Shown: positions 855 to 60,752, numbered from the stretch's first letter. The stretch: DNA of 64,000 nt from an uncultured archaeon (GCA_964373665.1 CAYJVM010000001.1:93325-157324); one strand, 5' to 3'. Made by a program: numbers and translations. The notes: generated by a model not told the origin, from the letters alone.

Positions 855-1283
855 TTGTTTAATATGAGATCAAATCTTATTCCATTATTAATATTCTCAT
901 TAGTTGCTATAGTTTTTGTAAGTGGTTGTACGCAGTATGGTGGACAACAAACCCAACCTGCATCACCAACGCAACCAACATCAACGACTGTGAGTAGTGT
1001 TGAAATTACATCTTCAGGATTCAGTCCAAACACATTAACAATTAAGACTGGTGAAACTGTTACATTTGTAAACAAAGATTCTCGCCCTCATTGGCCAGCA
1101 TCAGCCGTACACCCAACACATACAGTATACCCCGAAACTGGTGGCTGTATAGGAAGCAAGTTCGATGCATGCAAAGGTTTGGCACAAGGCGAGACTTTCT
1201 CATTCAAATTTAATCAAAAAGGAACTTGGAATTACCATGATCACTTGAACCCAAGTTTAACTGGAACAATAATTGTTCAGTGA
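855..1283 (+). CDS. secreted cupredoxin-like (blue copper) lipoprotein
   Basis: It has a signal peptide with the lipobox-like sequence VSGC, a Thr/Pro-rich linker, and His/Cys residues (HWPASAVHP, GGCIGS, YHDH) arranged as in cupredoxins. Confidence 0.55.
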   Translation: MFNMRSNLIPLLIFSLVAIVFVSGCTQYGGQQTQPASPTQPTSTTVSSVEITSSGFSPNTLTIKTGETVTFVNKDSRPHWPASAVHPTHTVYPETGGCIGSKFDACKGLAQGETFSFKFNQKGTWNYHDHLNPSLTGTIIVQ

Positions 1284-1626: not shown

Positions 1627-2139
1627 TGTGGCAACTCGGAAACTTCTTCGTTCGCGCACTCCGACCACGCTGCGCTCTCACTTCGTTCTGGGAGCATAAC
1701 AAGTGATATACGGTTCAGCCCTCGGCTCGGGTTTCACCCAAATTTTGCTCCGTTTCACTCCGCAAAACTTCGTATATCCTTAACGTTGGGCGTAATTCAG
1801 AATTCGGCATTCCCCCGACCACCCACCCCTAATTTGAGAGGGGTTGCTTACGAAACGGAAAAATCCTTCGCTTAACCTTCACAACGAAAAACGAAAACCC
1901 AATTTGCTTCGCAAACAAAGCCTAACATTGGTTAAGCGGTTTCACTATCGCTACACCCAAAGATTTTTCTGACGAAACGGGCCGAGGCTTTTAGCCCTTC
2001 GGGCATATAGTCTGCTACGCAGAAATAATTAACAGAAAGAGGGGTCATCTTAAATTACGAAGATATAATATGTAGCAAAGAATAACATATGATAGAATTT
2101 ACCATAAGATTTAAATAGTACTAACTTTAACTAGAATAT

Positions 2140-2466
2140 ATGTCAAAGAATCTTTTGAAAGAATCAGGGTTAATGCAAAATGCTTATGATAGATTTCTTA
2201 GAACATTATGTAATAGGACAAGATTGTCAATTATTCAATCATTAAGGGACAAGCCTAAAAATGTGACTCAACTCACAAATGAGCTCGGCATACACCAAAC
2301 ATCTGTTTCTCACGGACTAAAGAGACTACTTGACTGCGGTTTTGTTCATGTAACGCAGAATGGTAGGGAGAGAGTTTATTCTGTCAATAAAAAAACAATC
2401 AAACCTTTGTTAGGGCTAATGGAGTCGCATATTGAAAACTACTGTAAAAAGAAATGTTGTGAGTAA
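2140..2466 (+). CDS. ArsR/SmtB-family winged-helix transcriptional regulator
   Basis: The stretch RLSIIQSLRDKPKNVTQLTNELGIHQTSVSHGLKRL is a typical ArsR helix-turn-helix. Confidence 0.7.
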   Translation: MSKNLLKESGLMQNAYDRFLRTLCNRTRLSIIQSLRDKPKNVTQLTNELGIHQTSVSHGLKRLLDCGFVHVTQNGRERVYSVNKKTIKPLLGLMESHIENYCKKKCCE

Positions 2467-2467
2467 T

Positions 2468-3031
2468 ATGGATAAGAAAAAATTTCCAATAGCGAATATT
2501 GTAATATTTATTTTAGTTATAACTCTTTTTATCTCTCTTTTCTATGTCGCTTCTTATTTTCGTGAGCAGGAAGAAGAAATAAGATCAGAAAATCCCATAA
2601 CTTTTTGCCAGCCTCCAAAAGCTCCTCCAGAAGAACAAAAATGTTATTTCACAACTCATATTCACTTTTTCCCAACCATGAAGATATTTGGAGAAGAAAA
2701 AACTCTTCCTTTTGAGCATGGTACTTTAGAAAAATTTCATACCCATTATGAGGAAAACAAGGTTCATTGGCATGCACTTATCCCAATTAATCCAATAACG
2801 AAACAACCCTTAGAAAATCTTACTTTAGGAGAGCTGTTTGATGATTTAGGGATACCTTTTGACGATGGTAGAATCTATGAGTTTGAGTCAGGCATGTTAA
2901 ATCCTGCAACAAGTCAGCCTGCAAAATTGGTAGTTTTCATAGAAGGTGAAGAGAAAGAGATAGAGAATCCACGAGATTACGTATTAAACCTAAAACTTGC
3001 GCATAGAAAAATTGAGATAATATTTGAATAG
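2468..3031 (+). CDS. membrane-anchored His-rich protein, possibly metal-binding
   Basis: It has an N-terminal transmembrane anchor and the His clusters HIHFFP and FHTHYEENKVHWH. The start was placed at the ATG just after the ArsR stop codon. Confidence 0.4.
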   Translation: MDKKKFPIANIVIFILVITLFISLFYVASYFREQEEEIRSENPITFCQPPKAPPEEQKCYFTTHIHFFPTMKIFGEEKTLPFEHGTLEKFHTHYEENKVHWHALIPINPITKQPLENLTLGELFDDLGIPFDDGRIYEFESGMLNPATSQPAKLVVFIEGEEKEIENPRDYVLNLKLAHRKIEIIFE

Positions 3032-3039
3032 GTGAAAAG

Positions 3040-3915
3040 ATGATAGAAGAAAAACAAAAAATAATTTTGGTTGCGCTTTCAATAATTCTATTTGTAATTA
3101 TAGGTCTTAGTCTGGCATGGATTTCTCAACAAACAGTACTTTCAGAAGAGCCAGGATTCCTGTTTATCGCTTTCTTAGCATTCGCTGCAGGCATTACTAT
3201 GATAGTTCTACCCTGTACTCTCCCATTAGTATTCGTAATTATTCCATTATGTGCTGGCAAAGGATACAAAAAAGGTTTTACAATGGCGCTTTTGTTTGGT
3301 TTAGGTTTGACAATAACCATAACCATTTATGGCGTAATCTTAGCTTCACTTGGAAGCTATTTTGGGTTAAGCAGAGGTTCTTTTATACTGTTTTTGATTA
3401 TAGGATCCTTAGCTTACCTCTTCGGTTTATCAGAACTTAGATTGCTAAACTTAAGATTACCTCACGCGAGATTACCGAGTTTTATACAAAAAGGCAGTGA
3501 TTATTGGAAGAGTTTCGGAACTGGCTTGGTTCTTGGAAATGTGGGCATTGCATGCCCTAATCCTTTGTTTTATGTCCTTCTTATCTACATAGCAGCACTT
3601 CCTGACCCATTCACAGGAGGCTTTGTTGCACTTCTGAATGGAATAGGAAGAGCCACTCCATTAATTTTGATGGCGGTCCTTGCTATTTTAGGAATACAGA
3701 CAACTCGGTTTATTGTTGAAAAGCGAATAGCTATAGAAAAGCTAACAGGTTATGGATTGGTAATATTTGGTGCATTTGTATTAACTGCTTGGATTTTCAA
3801 AACTCCGGGCTTATGGATAGCTCAACTACCGCCAAACTTGTGGGTATGGGCAACCTTTATTTTGCTCTCTGTGTTGCCTGCATTAATTAAACGTTTTGTA
3901 AAGGTGAAAGAATGA
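3040..3915 (+). CDS. CcdA/DsbD-family thiol-disulfide transporter-like membrane protein
   Basis: A polytopic membrane protein with conserved Cys in two transmembrane helices (LPCTLPL and IACPNPL). Confidence 0.55.
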   Translation: MIEEKQKIILVALSIILFVIIGLSLAWISQQTVLSEEPGFLFIAFLAFAAGITMIVLPCTLPLVFVIIPLCAGKGYKKGFTMALLFGLGLTITITIYGVILASLGSYFGLSRGSFILFLIIGSLAYLFGLSELRLLNLRLPHARLPSFIQKGSDYWKSFGTGLVLGNVGIACPNPLFYVLLIYIAALPDPFTGGFVALLNGIGRATPLILMAVLAILGIQTTRFIVEKRIAIEKLTGYGLVIFGAFVLTAWIFKTPGLWIAQLPPNLWVWATFILLSVLPALIKRFVKVKE

Positions 3916-4742
3916 AAGTAAAGAAAACATACCTCATTGCTGTGGCGTTGATTTTTATAGTCTTAGCAGTGGCTCTTAGTGGTTTTGCCTTATGGAATAA
4001 TTTTATTATCCCAAGTTTAGGAAATCTTAGTAATCTTTCACTGATTTTAATAATTGGTATTGCATTTCTTGCAGGAGTTGTTTCCTTTTTCTCGCCTTGT
4101 GGTTTAGCTTTATTGCCTACTGTATTCAGTTATAACTTAAGGAATTTTTCATCAGGGGAGGTTACAAAAACCAAAGTGCTTTCTGTAGGTTTGTATTCAT
4201 CAATAGGAATTTTATCATTCTACGCATTGATTGGGCTTATTTTTTCTCTTTTAGGATCTGTTTTCTTTCCATATCTCAAGACTTTGCAGTATGTGTTTGC
4301 TGCAATAATCATAGCATTGGGGATTGTTATGGTTAAGAACATCTCAATAAGATTCCCTTTCCAAAAGACAATCAGCTCCGCATTTGCTGGCAAAGTCTAT
4401 GAATCAGTTGGATTCAAAAATTATTATTTGTTTGGATTTGGATATGGTCTTGCAATTATGGGGTGTGTTGCCCCTATAGTTTCTGCCCTTTTGATATTCC
4501 CCTTTATCGTTGGCAATTTCTCATTGGGTATATCGGCATTTGTTTCTTATGGAATTGCACAAGCTGTGATGCTGACAATATTTGCATGGACTACTGTCTT
4601 CTCAGAGAAGAATGTTTTTGAAAAAGCATTAAGATCCAGTGTAAAAATTAAAAAACTTGCAGGTATCGGTCTTATCATAGGAGGGATAATATTATTAACT
4701 TACTACATATTTTTTGGGATGGGATTAGTATTAGGTGGATAA
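3912..4742 (+). CDS. CcdA/DsbD-family membrane protein (paralog)
   Basis: The motifs SPCGLALLP and GCVAPIV sit in transmembrane helices. The gene overlaps its upstream neighbour by 4 nt. Confidence 0.55.
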   Translation: MKVKKTYLIAVALIFIVLAVALSGFALWNNFIIPSLGNLSNLSLILIIGIAFLAGVVSFFSPCGLALLPTVFSYNLRNFSSGEVTKTKVLSVGLYSSIGILSFYALIGLIFSLLGSVFFPYLKTLQYVFAAIIIALGIVMVKNISIRFPFQKTISSAFAGKVYESVGFKNYYLFGFGYGLAIMGCVAPIVSALLIFPFIVGNFSLGISAFVSYGIAQAVMLTIFAWTTVFSEKNVFEKALRSSVKIKKLAGIGLIIGGIILLTYYIFFGMGLVLGG

Positions 4743-5334
4743 AATGGCAAAAGAAATAGAAATAAACATAAAAGCACTAATTGGCGGGATTGTAGGAGGA
4801 CTCACAGCATCATTTTTTGCATTTGGCCCATTGATTATGAGCTTGCTTGGGTTTGATGCTGTTACATCATTAACGGTCGTAAAATATTGGATGTATCTGA
4901 TAATTACTGGTGTAATAGTTGCTTTAGCCTTTCCTTTTTCTACACGCAAAAAGAGTATTTCTTTATCAAAATCAGGAATCTTAACTTCTCTTGTAAGTTT
5001 TGGGCTTATATTTATTATAGGGGTTTATGGACTCACACCAATTTTAGCTCCGTTAGTATCTGGGAATACGCGACAAGAAATTACAAATGGTAATTACAAA
5101 GTGCTTACGTTGTCAATTCCCGGAATGGTTTGTTCAGGTTGTGCAGCAAGCATACAAGGAGCGCTAAAGAATACGAATGGTGTGATTGATGCAAGCGTTA
5201 CTCTTTCAAATAAGCAAGCAATTGTCATTTATGATCCATCAATTACTACAAAAGAAAAAATTGTTAATTTAGAAATTTTCACTAGCATTTATCCTGCCAC
5301 TATAATAAAGGATGGGGATTGGAAGCGTGAGTAA
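4735..5334 (+). CDS. membrane protein with C-terminal heavy-metal-associated (HMA) domain
   Basis: The motif GMVCSGCAASIQ (GMxCxxC) lies in a ~70-aa ferredoxin-like C-terminal domain, preceded by transmembrane helices at the N-terminus. Confidence 0.6.
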   Translation: MDKMAKEIEINIKALIGGIVGGLTASFFAFGPLIMSLLGFDAVTSLTVVKYWMYLIITGVIVALAFPFSTRKKSISLSKSGILTSLVSFGLIFIIGVYGLTPILAPLVSGNTRQEITNGNYKVLTLSIPGMVCSGCAASIQGALKNTNGVIDASVTLSNKQAIVIYDPSITTKEKIVNLEIFTSIYPATIIKDGDWKRE

Positions 5335-5581
5335 AATGGCAAAAGAAGTTTTAGTTTTAAAGACTCCTGGATGTGCCTCATGTGCACAAGCAACCATATT
5401 AATCAATAAACTCAAGAAAGAAGAGAAACTTAAAATTACTGTTAAAGAAGTTGATATAACAAAAAATCCAGACACTCTCAGAAAATACCCTATTATGAGT
5501 TCTCCTGGAATTGTAATCAATGGTAAGTTAGAGTTTGTTGGAGTGCCAAGAGAGAAAGAATTGAGAGAAAAACTTAGATAA
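5312..5581 (+). CDS. thioredoxin/glutaredoxin-like small protein
   Basis: It carries a CASC active-site motif in a thioredoxin-like context and is ~80 aa long. Confidence 0.55.
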   Translation: MGIGSVSKMAKEVLVLKTPGCASCAQATILINKLKKEEKLKITVKEVDITKNPDTLRKYPIMSSPGIVINGKLEFVGVPREKELREKLR

Positions 5582-5954
5582 TTCTTTTGAAAGATGCCCA
5601 CCTTCAAAACCTTCTTTTTCAGAAAAAGAAGCAAAAACAAAAGCTCCTGCACTGTCCTTCGGATATACAGTCGCCTTCGGCAGATTATATTAAAAGGAAC
5701 CCCCTTTATTTTATTGGAAAATCGTGGCGTCCCGCCACCGCCGAATTCTGAACTCAAAATTTCTGCGAAATTTTGCCGTGCCTTGCAGGCTCTCACTTCG
5801 TTCGGGACGCCTAACAGCGATTATCTGTGATTTTCCTGCGAAAAATCCCCAAATTCTCTAAAGAGAACTTCAGATAATCGCGATGTTAGGTGACGTTTAC
5901 TTTACAGCTCAATATGATTCAATTTTATAAGCTCATCTAAACTATCTTTAATGA

Positions 5955-7502
5955 ATGAAGTGGAAATCCTTCAAGCACAACGGCGTCTACTTCCCTCCTG
6001 AATACCAGTGGAAAAAGCTGTCAGTCAAAATCAAAGCCGAGAAAGTGCAGCTGAATCAGGAGCAGGAGGAAATGCTCTATGCTTGGACGAAAAAAATCAA
6101 CACACCATACGTTCAAGACTCTGTTTTCCAGCAGAATTTTTTATCAGACCTAAAGAAAGTCCTTCCCAAGTTCCAGCATATCACAATGGATGACATTGAC
6201 CTCTCCGAAATTATCAAGTACCAGGAGAATGAAAAGAACCTGACTAGAGAAGAAAAGAAGATGCTGGCCGCAGAAAGAAAGAAGCAGAAAGAAGCGCTAA
6301 AGGAAAAATACGGCTATGTTGAGATAGACGGGAACAAGGCAGAAGCGGCAAACTGGATGGCAGAGCCTCCCGGAATTTTCATGGGTCGTGGCCAGCACCC
6401 GTTGAGAGGAAAATGGAAGAGAAGGATTATATCCGAGGATATAATATTAAATCTGAGCAAGGACGCGGCGGTTCCTGAAGGCAAGTGGAAAAAAGTCATC
6501 CATGGAAACGATTTCATGTGGATGGCATCGTGGCATGACGAGCTCACCGACAAGATGAAATATGTGTGGCCTAGCGAAGGCTCTGTTCTAAGGCAGAAGA
6601 GGGAGAAGGAAAAGTACGACAAGGCAATGTCCATCGACGACAACTTGGAGAAGATAAGAAAGCATATCCATGACGGTCTAAACTCAAAAGACGAAAAAAC
6701 AAGAAAAGTAGCTACAGTATGCTTCCTGATAGACAGGCTTGTAATGAGAGTGGGTGACGAAAAGGATGAGGACGAGGCTGACACTGTAGGAGCTTCGACG
6801 CTAAGGGTGGAGCATATAAAATTCAATCCCGATTCCATAGAATTCGATTTCCTTGGCAAGGACAGCGTCAGATGGGAGAAGAAACTGTTGTTCTCGGACG
6901 TTGACCCGACATTCGTGAAGAACATGAAAGAGTTTACCAACGGGAAAAAACCGGACAGCCTGATATTCGACGGCATAAGCTCGCGTGATGTCAACCAATT
7001 TTTCGGCAAGTGCATCAAAGGCCTGACGGCGAAAACATTCAGGACATACCACGCCACAAACACTCTGGTATCCTACCTGACATCTGTGAAAGTCAAATCT
7101 AGCGACACCGCGCAGCAGAAACTGTACCACGCAAAGATGGGCAACCTAGAGGTGGCGATAGCCTGCAATCACAAGAAGACGCCGCCGAAAACATGGGAGG
7201 AAACTTTCGCAAGGAAGCAGGAGAAACTAACAAAATGGATGAACACTAGTCCGAAGACAGAAAAGCAGGCGGAGAAGCTCAAGGAAAGGATAGAAAAATT
7301 GAAGATGGACATAGAGCTGTCGAAGAAAACTAAGGAATACAACCTGGGGACTTCGTTAAAGAACTATGTAGATCCGCGCGTTTACAAGTCATGGCTTGAC
7401 AAGATGGGGATAGACTGGACAAAACTATACACTTCAGCGTTGCAGAAAAAGTTTTCATGGGTCACCCGCTCAAAAGTCAAATGGGAAGACGTCGTGAGAT
7501 AG
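5955..7502 (+). CDS. DNA topoisomerase IB (eukaryote-type)
   Basis: FRTYHATNT and LGTSLKNYVDPRVY match the topoisomerase IB catalytic region (the active-site Tyr lies within LGTS.KNY.DPR). The lysine-rich N-terminal region is also typical. Confidence 0.85.
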   Translation: MKWKSFKHNGVYFPPEYQWKKLSVKIKAEKVQLNQEQEEMLYAWTKKINTPYVQDSVFQQNFLSDLKKVLPKFQHITMDDIDLSEIIKYQENEKNLTREEKKMLAAERKKQKEALKEKYGYVEIDGNKAEAANWMAEPPGIFMGRGQHPLRGKWKRRIISEDIILNLSKDAAVPEGKWKKVIHGNDFMWMASWHDELTDKMKYVWPSEGSVLRQKREKEKYDKAMSIDDNLEKIRKHIHDGLNSKDEKTRKVATVCFLIDRLVMRVGDEKDEDEADTVGASTLRVEHIKFNPDSIEFDFLGKDSVRWEKKLLFSDVDPTFVKNMKEFTNGKKPDSLIFDGISSRDVNQFFGKCIKGLTAKTFRTYHATNTLVSYLTSVKVKSSDTAQQKLYHAKMGNLEVAIACNHKKTPPKTWEETFARKQEKLTKWMNTSPKTEKQAEKLKERIEKLKMDIELSKKTKEYNLGTSLKNYVDPRVYKSWLDKMGIDWTKLYTSALQKKFSWVTRSKVKWEDVVR

Positions 7503-7543: not shown

Positions 7544-7960
7544 ATGTTCTTCACGAATGTCGACTGGCTGGCAGTCCTTATAGCTGCAATAGCCAACATG
7601 GTGATTGGCGCCTTGTGGTATTCTCCAATGCTTTTCGGCAAGTCATGGATGAAGCTTACGGGAATGTCTGAAGCTAAGATTAAAGCTGCGAAGAAGAGCG
7701 GCATGATGCAGTCTTATACAATTGCTTTCATAGGCTCTTTATTGATGGCATACGTTTTTGCCGTAATTCTCACATTGACAGCATCAGCAACCTTGGCTGC
7801 GGCAAGCAAGATGGCAGTCTGGGTCTGGCTAGGCTTTATAGCTCCTGTAATGCTAGGTATGGTACTGTGGGAAGGTAAATCTGTCACACTGTATCTGATG
7901 AACATTCTTTATTATCTTGTCGCGCTTTTGGCAATGGGCGTAGTTCTAATTCTAGTTTAA
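7544..7960 (+). CDS. DUF1761-like membrane protein
   Basis: Four predicted transmembrane helices, and the motif WYSPMLFGKSWMK is typical of DUF1761. Confidence 0.45.
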   Translation: MFFTNVDWLAVLIAAIANMVIGALWYSPMLFGKSWMKLTGMSEAKIKAAKKSGMMQSYTIAFIGSLLMAYVFAVILTLTASATLAAASKMAVWVWLGFIAPVMLGMVLWEGKSVTLYLMNILYYLVALLAMGVVLILV

Positions 7961-8991: not shown

Positions 8992-9076
8992 TGGACCAGC
9001 TGGGATTTGAACCCAGAGCCTCTTCCTTGCGAAGGAAGCGTTATAGGTTAACTATCTACCGTTGATCTACTGGCCC
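8992..9076 (-). tRNA. tRNA, probably Ala(CGC), with a ~12-nt insertion in the D region
   Basis: On the reverse complement the acceptor stem is GGGCCAG/CTGGTCC with a G3:U70 pair, the T-arm is CTGGG-TTCAAAT-CCCAG, and the anticodon arm is CTTCC-TTCGCAA-GGAAG. The 5' half is 12 nt too long for a standard D-arm. Confidence 0.6.
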
Positions 9077-9354
9077 AAGTCATGAAAGTATTTTTGCAGC
9101 AGAGCTTTTATCTCTTGTGAAAATCTCGGATTCAAGCTTATTTCCAAACCGTAGCTTGTAGGTTTTGACAAAATCAAACCTTTTCTAATCATCTCTTTGG
9201 TCGATTTGTCGACCTTCTTTAAACCTTCTTTATCCAAGTCTCGAATGTTCCAGCCTTTCTTTATATTGTCTAGTGAAGTATGTGCTGCGCCCCATTTACC
9301 CCTTTTATGCAATTTCAAAAGTATTCTAACTTCGACATCTTCGTCTGAAAACAT
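9067..9354 (-). CDS. hypothetical small basic protein
   Basis: An ORF with no recognised motif. Confidence 0.3.
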   Translation of the reverse strand: MFSDEDVEVRILLKLHKRGKWGAAHTSLDNIKKGWNIRDLDKEGLKKVDKSTKEMIRKGLILSKPTSYGLEISLNPRFSQEIKALLQKYFHDLGQ

Positions 9355-9413
9355 AAGTACACTTATAATACTTCGTAAGTAACATTTAAATACTTCTATG
9401 ATATACTATATTC

Positions 9414-9758
9414 ATGAAAGCCGAACCAACTTTACTCGTCGAATTTCTTGGCGACAATCCAACAATTAGGATAATCGATTTTTTTCTTGACAATAGAACA
9501 GATTACTCAAAAAATGAGATAGTGAAAGGTACTGATATGTCAAAAACAACTTTCTATAAAGTTTGGGGTAAATTGGAAAAGTTCAGAGTAGTTGTTCCAA
9601 CAAGACGATATGGAAAAGCTCAATTGTTTAAAATCAACGAGCAGAATGAGCTTGTGAAAAAATTGATTTCCTTAGAGTTTACTCTGGGTATTCAAGCAAT
9701 GAACGAAGCACTAGTAAAAGTTCCTATTAGAGCAAATCCAAGACGTAAATATAAATGA
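9414..9758 (+). CDS. winged-helix DNA-binding protein (putative regulator)
   Basis: Its wHTH-like pattern of hydrophobic and basic residues resembles TrmB/ArsR-like archaeal regulators. Confidence 0.4.
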   Translation: MKAEPTLLVEFLGDNPTIRIIDFFLDNRTDYSKNEIVKGTDMSKTTFYKVWGKLEKFRVVVPTRRYGKAQLFKINEQNELVKKLISLEFTLGIQAMNEALVKVPIRANPRRKYK

Positions 9759-9912
9759 CAAGCATTCTCAGTTTAAACTATAGCTTAGAGTGGGTTGAAA
9801 GTTGTCGAATGCAATTTTAACGGAAGTTGGTGAATGACGACAATGATTATTGTTAACTATTAATAAGTGGTAAAAGAGAAAGATTTAAGTACTTTATCAA
9901 ATAACTTGTTGT

Positions 9913-10212
9913 ATGCAATATTCAGAAGGTACAGCTACGGGGCGAGTAAGAGTAATGCAGTTGGAGGATCCGGGAATCTTCCGCTATCTGCTTAACCTCA
10001 GTTCTAAAGGTGGGAAAGATGAATACAGATGGTTTGCCCGTACAAATAGAGACGACTCGGGGAGGGAACTAAGAGATGGTGATTATGCTAGAATTAATTT
10101 TAAGCAAGATTGGCCATATATTACAATTACGGGTTCTCCGATTTCTGATGAAGAAGAGAAAGTTGTAACAGATCTCGTATATCAGGATATCAAAGTCGAC
10201 AAATTTGGATAA
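9913..10212 (+). CDS. hypothetical protein
   Basis: ORF only. Confidence 0.3.
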   Translation: MQYSEGTATGRVRVMQLEDPGIFRYLLNLSSKGGKDEYRWFARTNRDDSGRELRDGDYARINFKQDWPYITITGSPISDEEEKVVTDLVYQDIKVDKFG

Positions 10213-13507: not shown

Positions 13508-13620
13508 GCTCCCTTCGTCTAGCCCGGTCAAGGATACAGCCCTTTCGAGTTGTCTCAGAAAGGTTTGATGCAAGATGATAAAGCAAGGCTGTAACGCGGG
13601 TTCAAATCCCGCAGGGAGCA
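13508..13620 (+). tRNA. tRNA-Glu(TTC) with ~38-nt intron
   Basis: The acceptor stem is GCTCCCT/AGGGAGC, the D-loop is AGCCCGGTCAA, the anticodon stem is CAGCC/GGCTG with loop CTTTCG, and the T-arm is GCGGG-TTCAAAT-CCCGC. The intron sits next to the anticodon loop. Confidence 0.75.
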
Positions 13621-54509: not shown

Positions 54510-54635
54510 GGGCCCGTAGCTCAGCATGGTAGAGCAGCTGATGCCAAGTTGAAGCTTTTAACCATGTGTGAAAAAGCATTGATTCCCAGATGAAAGGAAA
54601 CCAGTTGGTCGAGGGTTCAAATCCCTCCGGGCCCA
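54510..54635 (+). tRNA. tRNA-Gly(GCC) with ~50-nt intron (Trp not fully excluded)
   Basis: The acceptor stem is GGGCCCG/CGGGCCC, the D-arm is GCTC-AGCATGGTA-GAGC, the anticodon loop is ATGCCAA with U33, the T-arm is GAGGG-TTCAAAT-CCCTC, and the discriminator is A. Confidence 0.65.
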
Positions 54636-60548: not shown

Positions 60549-60633
60549 GGGCCCATAGCTCAGCATGGTAGAGCAGCTCGCTCTTAATTTTGGGGTTACG
60601 AGACGGTCAAGGGTTCGAATCCCTTTGGGCCCA
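60549..60633 (+). tRNA. tRNA-Lys(CTT) with ~11-nt intron
   Basis: The acceptor stem is GGGCCCA/TGGGCCC, the D-arm is GCTC-AGCATGGTA-GAGC, the anticodon loop is CTCTTAA, and the T-arm is AAGGG-TTCGAAT-CCCTT. Confidence 0.7.
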
Positions 60634-60752
60634 CTGCCGTTTGGGTTTGAAACCCCTTTAAGGACACTGAATCCGTACTTCGATGGGTCCGGAGACGGAC
60701 CGGCGTCGACAGGGCCAGCATTGGACTCTTCGGTTTCAGCGGAGGGTCTGCC

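Follow-up and report, generated by a model that had tools for sequence, protein, structure and literature searches.

Six co-directional genes at positions 2140 to 5581 on the + strand of a 64,000-nucleotide DNA stretch from an uncultured archaeon (GCA_964373665.1 CAYJVM010000001.1:93325-157324; the whole stretch is called the window below) encode an ArsR-family regulator, a His/Cys-rich ectoprotein, two CcdA/DsbD-type permeases (CcdA1 and CcdA2), a membrane protein with an HMA domain, and a small thioredoxin. The His-rich ectodomain is an unannotated family without a solved structural relative, and it is the new element of this operon. For the operon as a whole, we regard it as an even call that it constitutes a horizontally acquired, metal-responsive envelope system that handles thiophilic metals through a reductive relay. 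Judging from the gene content of related loci, Hg(II) and/or Cu(I)/Cu(II) would most likely be the metals concerned.

A His/Cys-rich family adjoining CcdA permeases

The ectoprotein begins with a KKK-flanked transmembrane (TM) helix followed by an acidic stretch, which points to a type II anchor and an extracytoplasmic domain. This domain carries a Cys pair (C47/C59) and three His clusters, HIH, HTH.E, and HWH, in line with the HxH clusters reported in the original prediction. The residues concerned are C47, C59, H64, H66, E83, H91, H93, E95, H100, W101, and H102. No Pfam or NCBIfam model matches the protein. A word-indexed homologue search returned only five close matches, or 11 with a 70-sequence profile, and the family became visible only in an exhaustive HMMER search. 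Among 1.84 billion representatives, with the family counted at 50% clustering, this search identified 108 family proteins at an E value of ≤0.001, including 37 at ≤1e-10. In an alignment of 70 divergent members, H91, H93, and H100 are invariant, and conservation reaches at least 90% at C47, C59, H64, H66, G75, G85, L87, T92, E95, and H102. The family can hence be described by the motif C-x11-C-x4-HxH ... HTHxE-x4-HWH behind an N-terminal TM anchor, and the window protein has all of the invariant residues. None of the 70 members has a Pfam domain over the His-rich region.

An AlphaFold2 (AF2) model computed from the 70-sequence alignment is confident (predicted local distance difference test score [pLDDT], 93.9; predicted template modeling score, 0.80). 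This alignment was required, as AF2 with five sequences gave a pLDDT of 54. The model consists of the TM helix followed by a beta-rich domain, in which C47 and C59 lie on neighboring strands (residues 44-48 and 58-62). Foldseek retrieved nothing from the PDB at an E value of ≤0.001 (best E, 0.07; TM-score, 0.25), and a profile search with the His-rich family among PDB sequences yielded nothing beyond spurious coiled-coil matches. Since no cupin emerged from the fold search, we dropped the idea that the HxH...E motif is cupin-like. In the C-terminal part, the family consensus shows a ThiS-like "VNG...DGD.IE" signature, and one member has a weak ThiS match, which suggests a beta-grasp subdomain in this part of the ectoprotein.

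Related loci were sought with a 15-sequence alignment of the His-rich family, and the gene content of relatives was profiled with phmmer. The loci, designated here by number, comprise seven genomic loci (DPANN Woesearchaeota and candidate phyla radiation [CPR]/Patescibacteria), 35 metagenomic loci, and seven obtained by exact protein look-ups. A His-rich gene is present in 48 loci including the window, and 35 of these have enough downstream DNA to be assessed. Directly downstream of the His-rich gene, a DsbD-family gene is found in 31 of the 35 assessable loci. Four loci came via CcdA1 itself; when these are excluded, the adjacency stands at 27 of 31. In two further loci, the DsbD-family gene lies at most 3.5 kb away, behind a P-type ATPase (L006) or a beta-propeller protein (L007). 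A Thioredoxin_3 gene follows downstream in 15 of the 20 loci with room for it, and in three of the five loci without one, the contig stops within the CcdA2 or HMA gene. Wherever the DNA continues, CcdA2 is always followed by a gene for an anchored HMA protein. The linkage extends to gene fusions: P0026 joins the His-rich domain to DsbD_TM, and P0046 consists of a YtkA-like domain, the His-rich domain, and DsbD_TM. In these fusions, the His-rich domain stands where DsbD has its periplasmic alpha domain.

The full six-gene order recurs in L010 (79% identity in the His-rich protein), L015 (41%), and L044 (60% identity in CcdA1), and it is broken off by contig ends in L016, L017, and L020. The slot between CcdA1 and the thioredoxin gene varies, being filled by CcdA2 and the HMA gene in the window, by a BNR/sortilin gene in L001, and by CcdA2, the HMA gene, and two additional genes in L010. 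As far as these gene orders go, the set is a mosaic made of a conserved three-gene core (His-rich protein, CcdA, and thioredoxin), a swappable pair of CcdA2 and anchored HMA protein, and an ArsR regulator. The original prediction had suggested that such a system may not have been described in this form. The set is no one-off: it recurs in at least three other lineages, and loose precedents exist. We found no paper on the His-rich family or the six-gene set, which is weak evidence given incomplete literature coverage.

Several other genes accompany the module. In L010, the inserts at 2757-4330 encode a 328-amino-acid anchored protein containing DGIPPIENPKY, which may be DUF3179-like, and a 211-amino-acid membrane protein with an ACCAP motif. 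Those of L005 (6179-6879) encode a 69-amino-acid zinc-ribbon protein ending in KDECVFCSYA and a 166-amino-acid membrane protein without a Pfam match, homologues of which recur in L047 to L049. Extracytoplasmic beta-propellers (BNR/sortilin or YncE-like) recur in the module as well (L001, 9439-11628; L046, 4578-5480; L007, 7470-8867).

Operon layout, regulator, and partner proteins

The six open reading frames (ORFs) are tightly coupled, and their shared direction agrees with what had been predicted. One base separates ArsR from the ectoprotein gene (stop 2466, ATG 2468), CcdA2 from the HMA gene (stop 4742, ATG 4744), and the HMA gene from the thioredoxin gene (stop 5334, ATG 5336). The gap between the ectoprotein gene and CcdA1 is eight bases (stop 3031, ATG 3040), and the CcdA2 start at 3912 overlaps the CcdA1 stop at 3915 (ATGA). 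The junctions of the six genes thus read as operon-like. Starts were placed at 2468, 4744, and 5336, in preference to TTG 2432, GTG 4735, and ATG 5312, because these ATGs directly follow the preceding stops; the longest-ORF starts are probably too far upstream. The 187- and 196-amino-acid products are present as called genes in a public protein collection, and no internal TGA interrupts the operon ORFs.

Domain scores (Table 1) exceed the curated cut-offs for ArsR, both permeases, the HMA domain, and the thioredoxin, and all component assignments of the original prediction were confirmed. These cut-offs are 22 bits for HTH_5 (PF01022), 55 for NF033788, 27.1 for DsbD_TM (PF02683), 24.8 for HMA, and 24.8 for Thioredoxin_3; the cut-off for MerT, which is not reached (see below), is 32.9.

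Table 1. Features of the operon and its flanks (window coordinates; aa, amino acids; GC3, GC content at third codon positions)
Feature	Position	Strand	Evidence
Cupredoxin-like exported protein, possibly associated	855..1283	+	Cupredoxin_1 38.3 bits; GC3 0.245
Imperfect 28-nt direct repeat, left copy	1674..1701	+	
13-nt inverted repeat TTCAGAATTCGGC, left copy	1796..1808	+	
TTTAAATA box, putative archaeal TATA element, 22 nt before ArsR ATG	2110..2117	+	Read from sequence
ArsR/SmtB-family regulator, 108 aa	2140..2466	+	HTH_5 6.5e-12, 45.6 bits; NF033788 63.6 bits
His/Cys-rich ectoprotein, 187 aa, N-terminal TM anchor	2468..3031	+	No Pfam/NCBIfam match
CcdA1, DsbD_TM permease, 291 aa	3040..3915	+	PF02683 39.2 bits
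CcdA2, DsbD_TM permease, 276 aa	3912..4742	+	PF02683 35.8 bits
MerT-like module + HMA membrane protein, 196 aa	4744..5334	+	HMA 46.5 bits
Small thioredoxin, 81 aa	5336..5581	+	Thioredoxin_3 54.6 bits
13-nt inverted repeat, right copy	5740..5752	-	
Imperfect 28-nt direct repeat, right copy	5789..5816	+	

The ArsR protein has Cys66 after the recognition helix and ends in a C-KKK-CC tail. The alpha4C metal site of the Cd/Pb sensor CmtR (PDB 2jsc) comprises C57, C61, and a C-terminal Cys. When the two proteins are aligned, C66 stands opposite C61 and the position of C57 is taken by R62, with the CKKKCC tail present at the C terminus. Of the loci with a His-rich gene, 18 also have an ArsR gene, and most operon-linked ArsR proteins of other loci keep the C-terminal CxxxC(C) tail. 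The MerA-linked ArsR of L001 instead has both alpha4 Cys residues. The equivalent of CmtR C61 and the Cys-rich tail kept in other operon-linked ArsR proteins would fit a metal-sensing role for the regulator.

Upstream of the ArsR gene, the TTTAAATA box is kept in the two closest relatives, L010 and L011, and its distance to the ATG leads us to expect a leaderless archaeal transcript. A scan for sigma-70 promoters, a bacterial-type model applied to an archaeal host, stayed at background (17 found versus 14.5 expected). A second ArsR clade (L013, L014, L015, L017, L029, L030, and L044) has the palindrome TATGAAnTAnAATTCATA abutting the ArsR start codon. This palindrome is likely the operator of that clade, and it is absent from the ArsR clade of the window.

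CcdA1 and CcdA2 are distantly related permeases (25% identity). Their transmembrane Cys residues, situated in PCTLP and ACPNP of CcdA1 and in SPCGL and GCVAP of CcdA2, are invariant in both proteins across 10 aligned homologues. The CcdA1 subfamily is large, with 818 matches at an E value of ≤1e-10. Some DsbD_TM homologues carry the source annotation "cytochrome c-type biogenesis protein," and CcdA2 matches the NCBIfam model ArsG at 5e-9, far below its cut-off.

The HMA protein combines an N-terminal three-TM, MerT-like module with an HMA domain containing GMVCSGC. Its Pfam MerT score of 19.3 bits is below the cut-off, and the CC pair of MerT is replaced by FF in an alignment with a MerT reference sequence. 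The score against the MerP equivalog model TIGR02052 (43.2 bits) does not reach the cut-off of 92.55; together with the GMxCxxC motif, this identifies an HMA domain rather than a MerP equivalog. In L015 and L044, the homologues have a single N-terminal TM anchor and lack the MerT-like module, which places the HMA domain outside the cell. An outward-facing HMA domain is therefore the predicted conserved feature of the anchored HMA protein.

The thioredoxin starts with MAKEVLVLKTPGCASC and has the active site CASC at residues 12-15. As it has no signal peptide, TM helix, or hydrophobic leader, we assign it to the cytoplasm. Its score against the MJ0307-family model TIGR00411 (62.6 bits) is below the equivalog cut-off.

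Metal genes in sibling loci and the proposed relay

The core module adjoins MerA in three or four loci, and about four others place it within copper loci or close to them. In L001, the order is ArsR-MerA-HisRich-CcdA1-BNR-Trx, and the MerA protein carries GGTCVNVGCVPSK and a C-terminal CC pair. L029 and L030 share the order ArsR-HisRich-MerA. In L047, MerA is followed by a fusion of true MerT (with CC), HMA, cupredoxin, and a second HMA domain, and then by ArsR, thioredoxin, CcdA2, and the gene for the anchored HMA protein; behind an IS66 transposase come CcdA1, a gene for a YtkA-like protein, and a further thioredoxin gene. Among the copper loci, L046 is arranged as cupredoxin-CsoR-CopZ-methyltransferase-CopA-BNR-HisRich-CcdA1-Trx, and its CopA has the CPC, YN, and MxxSS motifs. 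CsoR also occurs in L007, together with a CPH-type ATPase that contains an HMBD domain; L049 encodes a CopC/cupredoxin protein along with a CopY-like regulator, and in L048 a multicopper oxidase lies 6.8 kb away. L006 carries, between the His-rich gene and CcdA1, a CPC ATPase whose specificity is unclear. These mercury and copper siblings lend support to the envelope thiol/metal system that the original prediction had proposed.

In the system that we propose, metal reaching the cytoplasm would bind a thiolate-rich, CmtR-like site in ArsR (Cys66 and the CKKKCC tail), releasing the promoter and derepressing the operon. The cytoplasmic CASC thioredoxin would then supply reducing equivalents to both CcdA permeases, each of which would move electrons across the membrane through its transmembrane Cys pair. 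CcdA1 would keep Cys47 and Cys59 of the ectoprotein reduced, and CcdA2 would do the same for the CxxC of the outward HMA domain. Once reduced, the ectodomains would bind metal on the outside of the cell, with six His and two Cys residues as ligands in the His-rich domain and two Cys residues in the HMA domain. By sequestering the metal or handing it on, they would protect the envelope thiols. This relay is suggested by the adjacency and fusions of the His-rich and DsbD genes, the conserved Cys and His residues, the thioredoxin gene that follows, the pairing of CcdA2 with HMA, the metal genes of sibling loci, the CmtR-like features of the regulator, and the precedents discussed below. From the sequences, we infer the direction of electron flow, the pairing of clients, the identity of the metal, and the regulation by ArsR.

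Several observations weigh against this proposal. A tblastn search with the L001 MerA found no merA in the 64-kb window; neither is there a merB in the window, and CopA, CopZ, CsoR, and CopY are absent from the operon and its immediate neighbors. Without merA, copA, or csoR in the window, the metal cannot be named. A site of six His residues is better suited to Cu(II), Zn, or Ni than to Hg(II), and gene order is the sole basis on which CcdA1 is paired with the His-rich domain and CcdA2 with HMA. In addition, relatives of DsbD_TM include genuine transporters, so that, given the ArsG match, either permease could move metal. In N. viennensis, a DsbD-family gene that may or may not be an ortholog of CcdA1 is strongly induced by copper limitation, not by excess (PMC7785015), which would fit acquisition.

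This last point favors metal import, the main rival reading, which we consider possible but rather unlikely. The operon would then act as a functional MerP/MerT analogue: the HMA and His-rich domains would capture Hg(II) or Cu, the transmembrane Cys pair of one or both CcdA-like permeases would pass the ion on, and the CASC thioredoxin would receive it, for delivery to a MerA encoded elsewhere or, in a variant, to supply copper to thaumarchaeal cuproenzymes. L001 and L029/L030 indeed place the genes beside MerA without a canonical Hg transporter, CcdA2 resembles the ArsG permease family, and the HMA protein carries the MerT-like module. With a single exception, mer transporters are missing from archaeal mer operons (PMC3466566), and CcdA or TrxA conserved domains are found in actinomycete proteins that bear a mercury transporter annotation (PMC12195606, table 4). 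However, Hg import would be harmful in a window without merA. The MerT-like module has also lost the CC pair needed for Hg transfer, and it is absent in L015 and L044. Metal-sensing ArsR/SmtB repressors normally derepress on metal excess, and such derepression fits detoxification better than acquisition. Finally, CcdA together with a cytoplasmic thioredoxin is the classic arrangement for electron transfer.

A more specific role for the His/Cys-rich ectoprotein, for which we see only a small likelihood, is that of a new extracytoplasmic metalloreductase or redox metallochaperone that uses CcdA-delivered thiol electrons to alter, outside the cell, the redox state of a metal held at its six-His site. 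Examples would be the reduction of Cu(II) to Cu(I) for hand-over to HMA, or Hg(II) handling upstream of MerA.

It is similarly improbable that the operon serves general extracytoplasmic disulfide reduction or repair of oxidative damage, with metals incidental and the His-rich protein an enzyme, such as a metal-dependent oxidoreductase, whose regulatory disulfide is reset by CcdA. CcdA/DsbD systems do serve many clients, genes for TlpA/AhpC-TSA-type proteins lie nearby in L006, L013, L019, L036, and L049, and VKOR and glyoxalase genes come after the six-gene set in L044. Yet the HMA domain and the thiolate-site ArsR are metal-specific parts of a conserved set, and neighbors such as MerA, CopA, CsoR, CopZ, CopC, and cupredoxin recur.

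The original prediction had also raised, as a counter-explanation, a conserved cytochrome c maturation locus (System II CcdA, ResA, and their partners), an explanation that is effectively refuted, as only the DsbD_TM Pfam name and the source annotation of some homologues speak for it, the thioredoxin has neither signal nor anchor and is not exported, no ORF of at least 100 amino acids in the window contains a heme-handling CxxCH or WWD motif, and a single CxxCH occurs in 316 kb of related loci. The host, moreover, looks like a thaumarchaeon on the basis of its topoisomerase IB, and Thaumarchaeota are not known to have c-type cytochromes.

As originally predicted, the operon does not conform to standard mer, cop, or ccm operons. 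For the window, a canonical mer operon can be dismissed, since merA and the MerT Cys pair (FF instead of CC) are missing; the CopA, CopZ, and CsoR of a cop operon are absent, as are heme-handling genes. By function, the closest analogue is the Scs system of Salmonella and Proteus, and by gene content the ArsR-regulated mer operons of actinobacteria and archaea. In Scs, the DsbD-like reductase ScsB acts with ScsC/ScsD and the copper-binding CueP; reduced Cys residues are needed for copper tolerance, and the system is metal induced (PMC10907172; PMC7785015). A DsbD-family protein thus carries cytoplasmic reducing power to envelope proteins, as proposed here for the operon. Unlike Scs, the operon has no periplasmic thioredoxin-fold partners, its clients would be the His/Cys-rich and HMA domains, and its permeases are of CcdA size (276 to 291 amino acids) without the periplasmic domains of ScsB. 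It also encodes a dedicated cytoplasmic thioredoxin and an ArsR, and its host is archaeal. Likewise, System II cytochrome c maturation and Escherichia coli DsbD share with the operon the DsbD_TM core, two essential transmembrane Cys residues, and a cytoplasmic thioredoxin source. In contrast to them, the operon lacks an exported thioredoxin-fold protein, heme-handling proteins, and cytochromes c, and its partner domain is unrelated to the alpha and gamma domains of DsbD (Foldseek, none at an E value of ≤0.001).

ArsR-type mer regulators occur in both archaea and actinobacteria (PMC3466566). The mer operons concerned (Streptomyces lividans type; Sulfolobus merR-merH-merA) resemble the present one in their ArsR-family regulator, and the siblings L001, L029/L030, and L047 carry MerA. 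They differ in that merA and merB are missing from the window and in that the operon thioredoxin is a cytoplasmic protein, in contrast to the actinobacterial "ORF3 precursor" type with its annotated export. Described mer operons do not include the His-rich family, and archaeal surveys list only merA, an ArsR-type regulator, and a TRASH protein (PMC3466566, PMC8261052). We found no paper that joins CcdA, mercury, thioredoxin, and MerT within an incomplete coverage of the literature.

Two further comparable systems were found among domain models. The fusion of a GMxCxxC HMA domain to a three-TM module that aligns with MerT recalls MerTP and MerT-MerP, with a weak NCBIfam MerTP match (8e-11; 41.8 bits against a cut-off of 180). 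However, the CC of TM1 is FF, scores are far below the cut-offs, and the MerT-like module is dispensable in homologous operons. The NCBIfam Tso selenoprotein operon has comparable parts, namely the ArsR-type TsoR, the rhodanese/DsbD fusion TsoB, a MerT/CopZ fusion selenoprotein, and the thioredoxin-like TsoX. The four matches are weak and far below their cut-offs (35.2 versus 115, 39.2 versus 805, 26.3 versus 375, and 18.8 versus 52 bits), and the window has neither selenocysteine nor a rhodanese domain.

Genomic island, host, and implications

Horizontal acquisition of the operon, on a low-GC island, is well supported by its composition and by its relatives. GC3 is 0.22 to 0.32 in the six operon genes versus 0.54 to 0.61 in host genes of the window. 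The same genes occur at 81 to 83% DNA identity in three other contigs (L001, L010, and L011) with different flanks. L001 shares 90% identity with the window in CcdA1 and 80% in the thioredoxin, and its copy lies between aEF-2 and EF-1alpha. The L010 copy adjoins small Cys-containing membrane proteins, and the L011 copy adjoins a large gene that, by eye, presumably encodes an ADP-forming acetyl-CoA synthetase.

Two pairs of repeats bracket the operon. The 13-nt inverted repeat has only two copies in the window, a number of matches reached in 2 of 100 shuffles. The imperfect 28-nt direct repeat has an exact 15-nt core with two copies in 64 kb, and none of 100 shuffles reached two. The left flank matches the sequence that precedes the L011 ArsR at 81% identity from about position 1785 onward, a point ten bases away from the left inverted repeat. 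The noncoding flanks at 1627-2139 and 5582-5954 have GC contents of 0.43 and 0.40, respectively, versus 0.35 for the operon, and may delimit a mobile unit. The unit contains no integrase or transposase. An Rfam scan of the noncoding DNA on either side gave a tRNA fragment at 9000-9054 and no other match. This partial match on the - strand (RF00005, 35.9 bits, model positions 8 to 63) edges a low-GC stretch at 9001-10000 (GC 0.355) and may be a remnant integration site.

Upstream of the operon, the cupredoxin gene at 855 has a similarly low GC3 (Table 1). Homologues of it lie near the module in L022 and L049 (phmmer), and L046 has a Cupredoxin_1 gene. The gene overlaps an ORF for a 117-amino-acid membrane protein (1273-1626). 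The cupredoxin has a lipobox-like FVSGC, the His clusters PHW, VHP, THT, and YHDH, and a C-x8-C pair. Type-1 copper sites carry C-x-x-H in the C-terminal loop; in this protein, the C-terminal loop is without Cys.

Directly downstream of the island, positions 5955-7502 encode a full-length, eukaryote-type DNA topoisomerase IB (three Pfam domains, E values of 1e-19 to 2e-67). Together with presumably intron-containing tRNAs in the window, it points to a thaumarchaeal host. Two long matches to tRNA, thought to owe their length to introns, lie at 13508-13620 (113 nt) and 54510-54635 (126 nt). ARAGORN assigns a four-base anticodon to the tRNA at 60549-60634, which Rfam scores as a normal tRNA (56.5 bits). 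A perfect 19-nt inverted repeat (CGACATTCGTGAAGAACAT / ATGTTCTTCACGAATGTCG) was observed at 6907-6925 and 7544-7562, 618 nt apart, one arm lying inside the topoisomerase IB gene and the other at the start codon of an ORF at 7544-7960. A NERD (nuclease-related domain) protein with host-like GC is encoded at 17-568 (E value, 2e-20).

Taken together, the analysis supports reading the operon as an envelope thiol pathway that is built on CcdA and linked to metal resistance. By gene neighborhood, the His-rich family sits beside CcdA shuttles in the mercury- and copper-resistance loci of many uncultured microbes. Archaeal mercury operons have been described as hardly more than merA plus an ArsR-type regulator, lacking proteins for transport or accessory functions (PMC3466566, PMC8261052). 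No partner could be named for the copper-responsive DsbD in the work on N. viennensis (PMC7785015). The copper-limitation-induced clusters of that archaeon include, besides the DsbD-family gene, a "sialidase" that may be a counterpart of the beta-propellers of the module (PMC7785015). For CcdA/DsbD proteins in archaea that make no c-type cytochromes, this locus offers a concrete partner candidate: a conserved, confidently foldable, and unannotated His/Cys-rich ectodomain that is genetically welded to CcdA. Were the ectoprotein a metalloreductase or redox metallochaperone, it would be a widespread, so far unrecognized accessory component of the mer and cop systems of archaea, DPANN, and CPR. 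If the proposed relay is true, it would add a layer of envelope protection or metal handling to the mer and cop systems of Thaumarchaeota, DPANN archaea, and CPR bacteria, and the CcdA family would gain a new class of clients.

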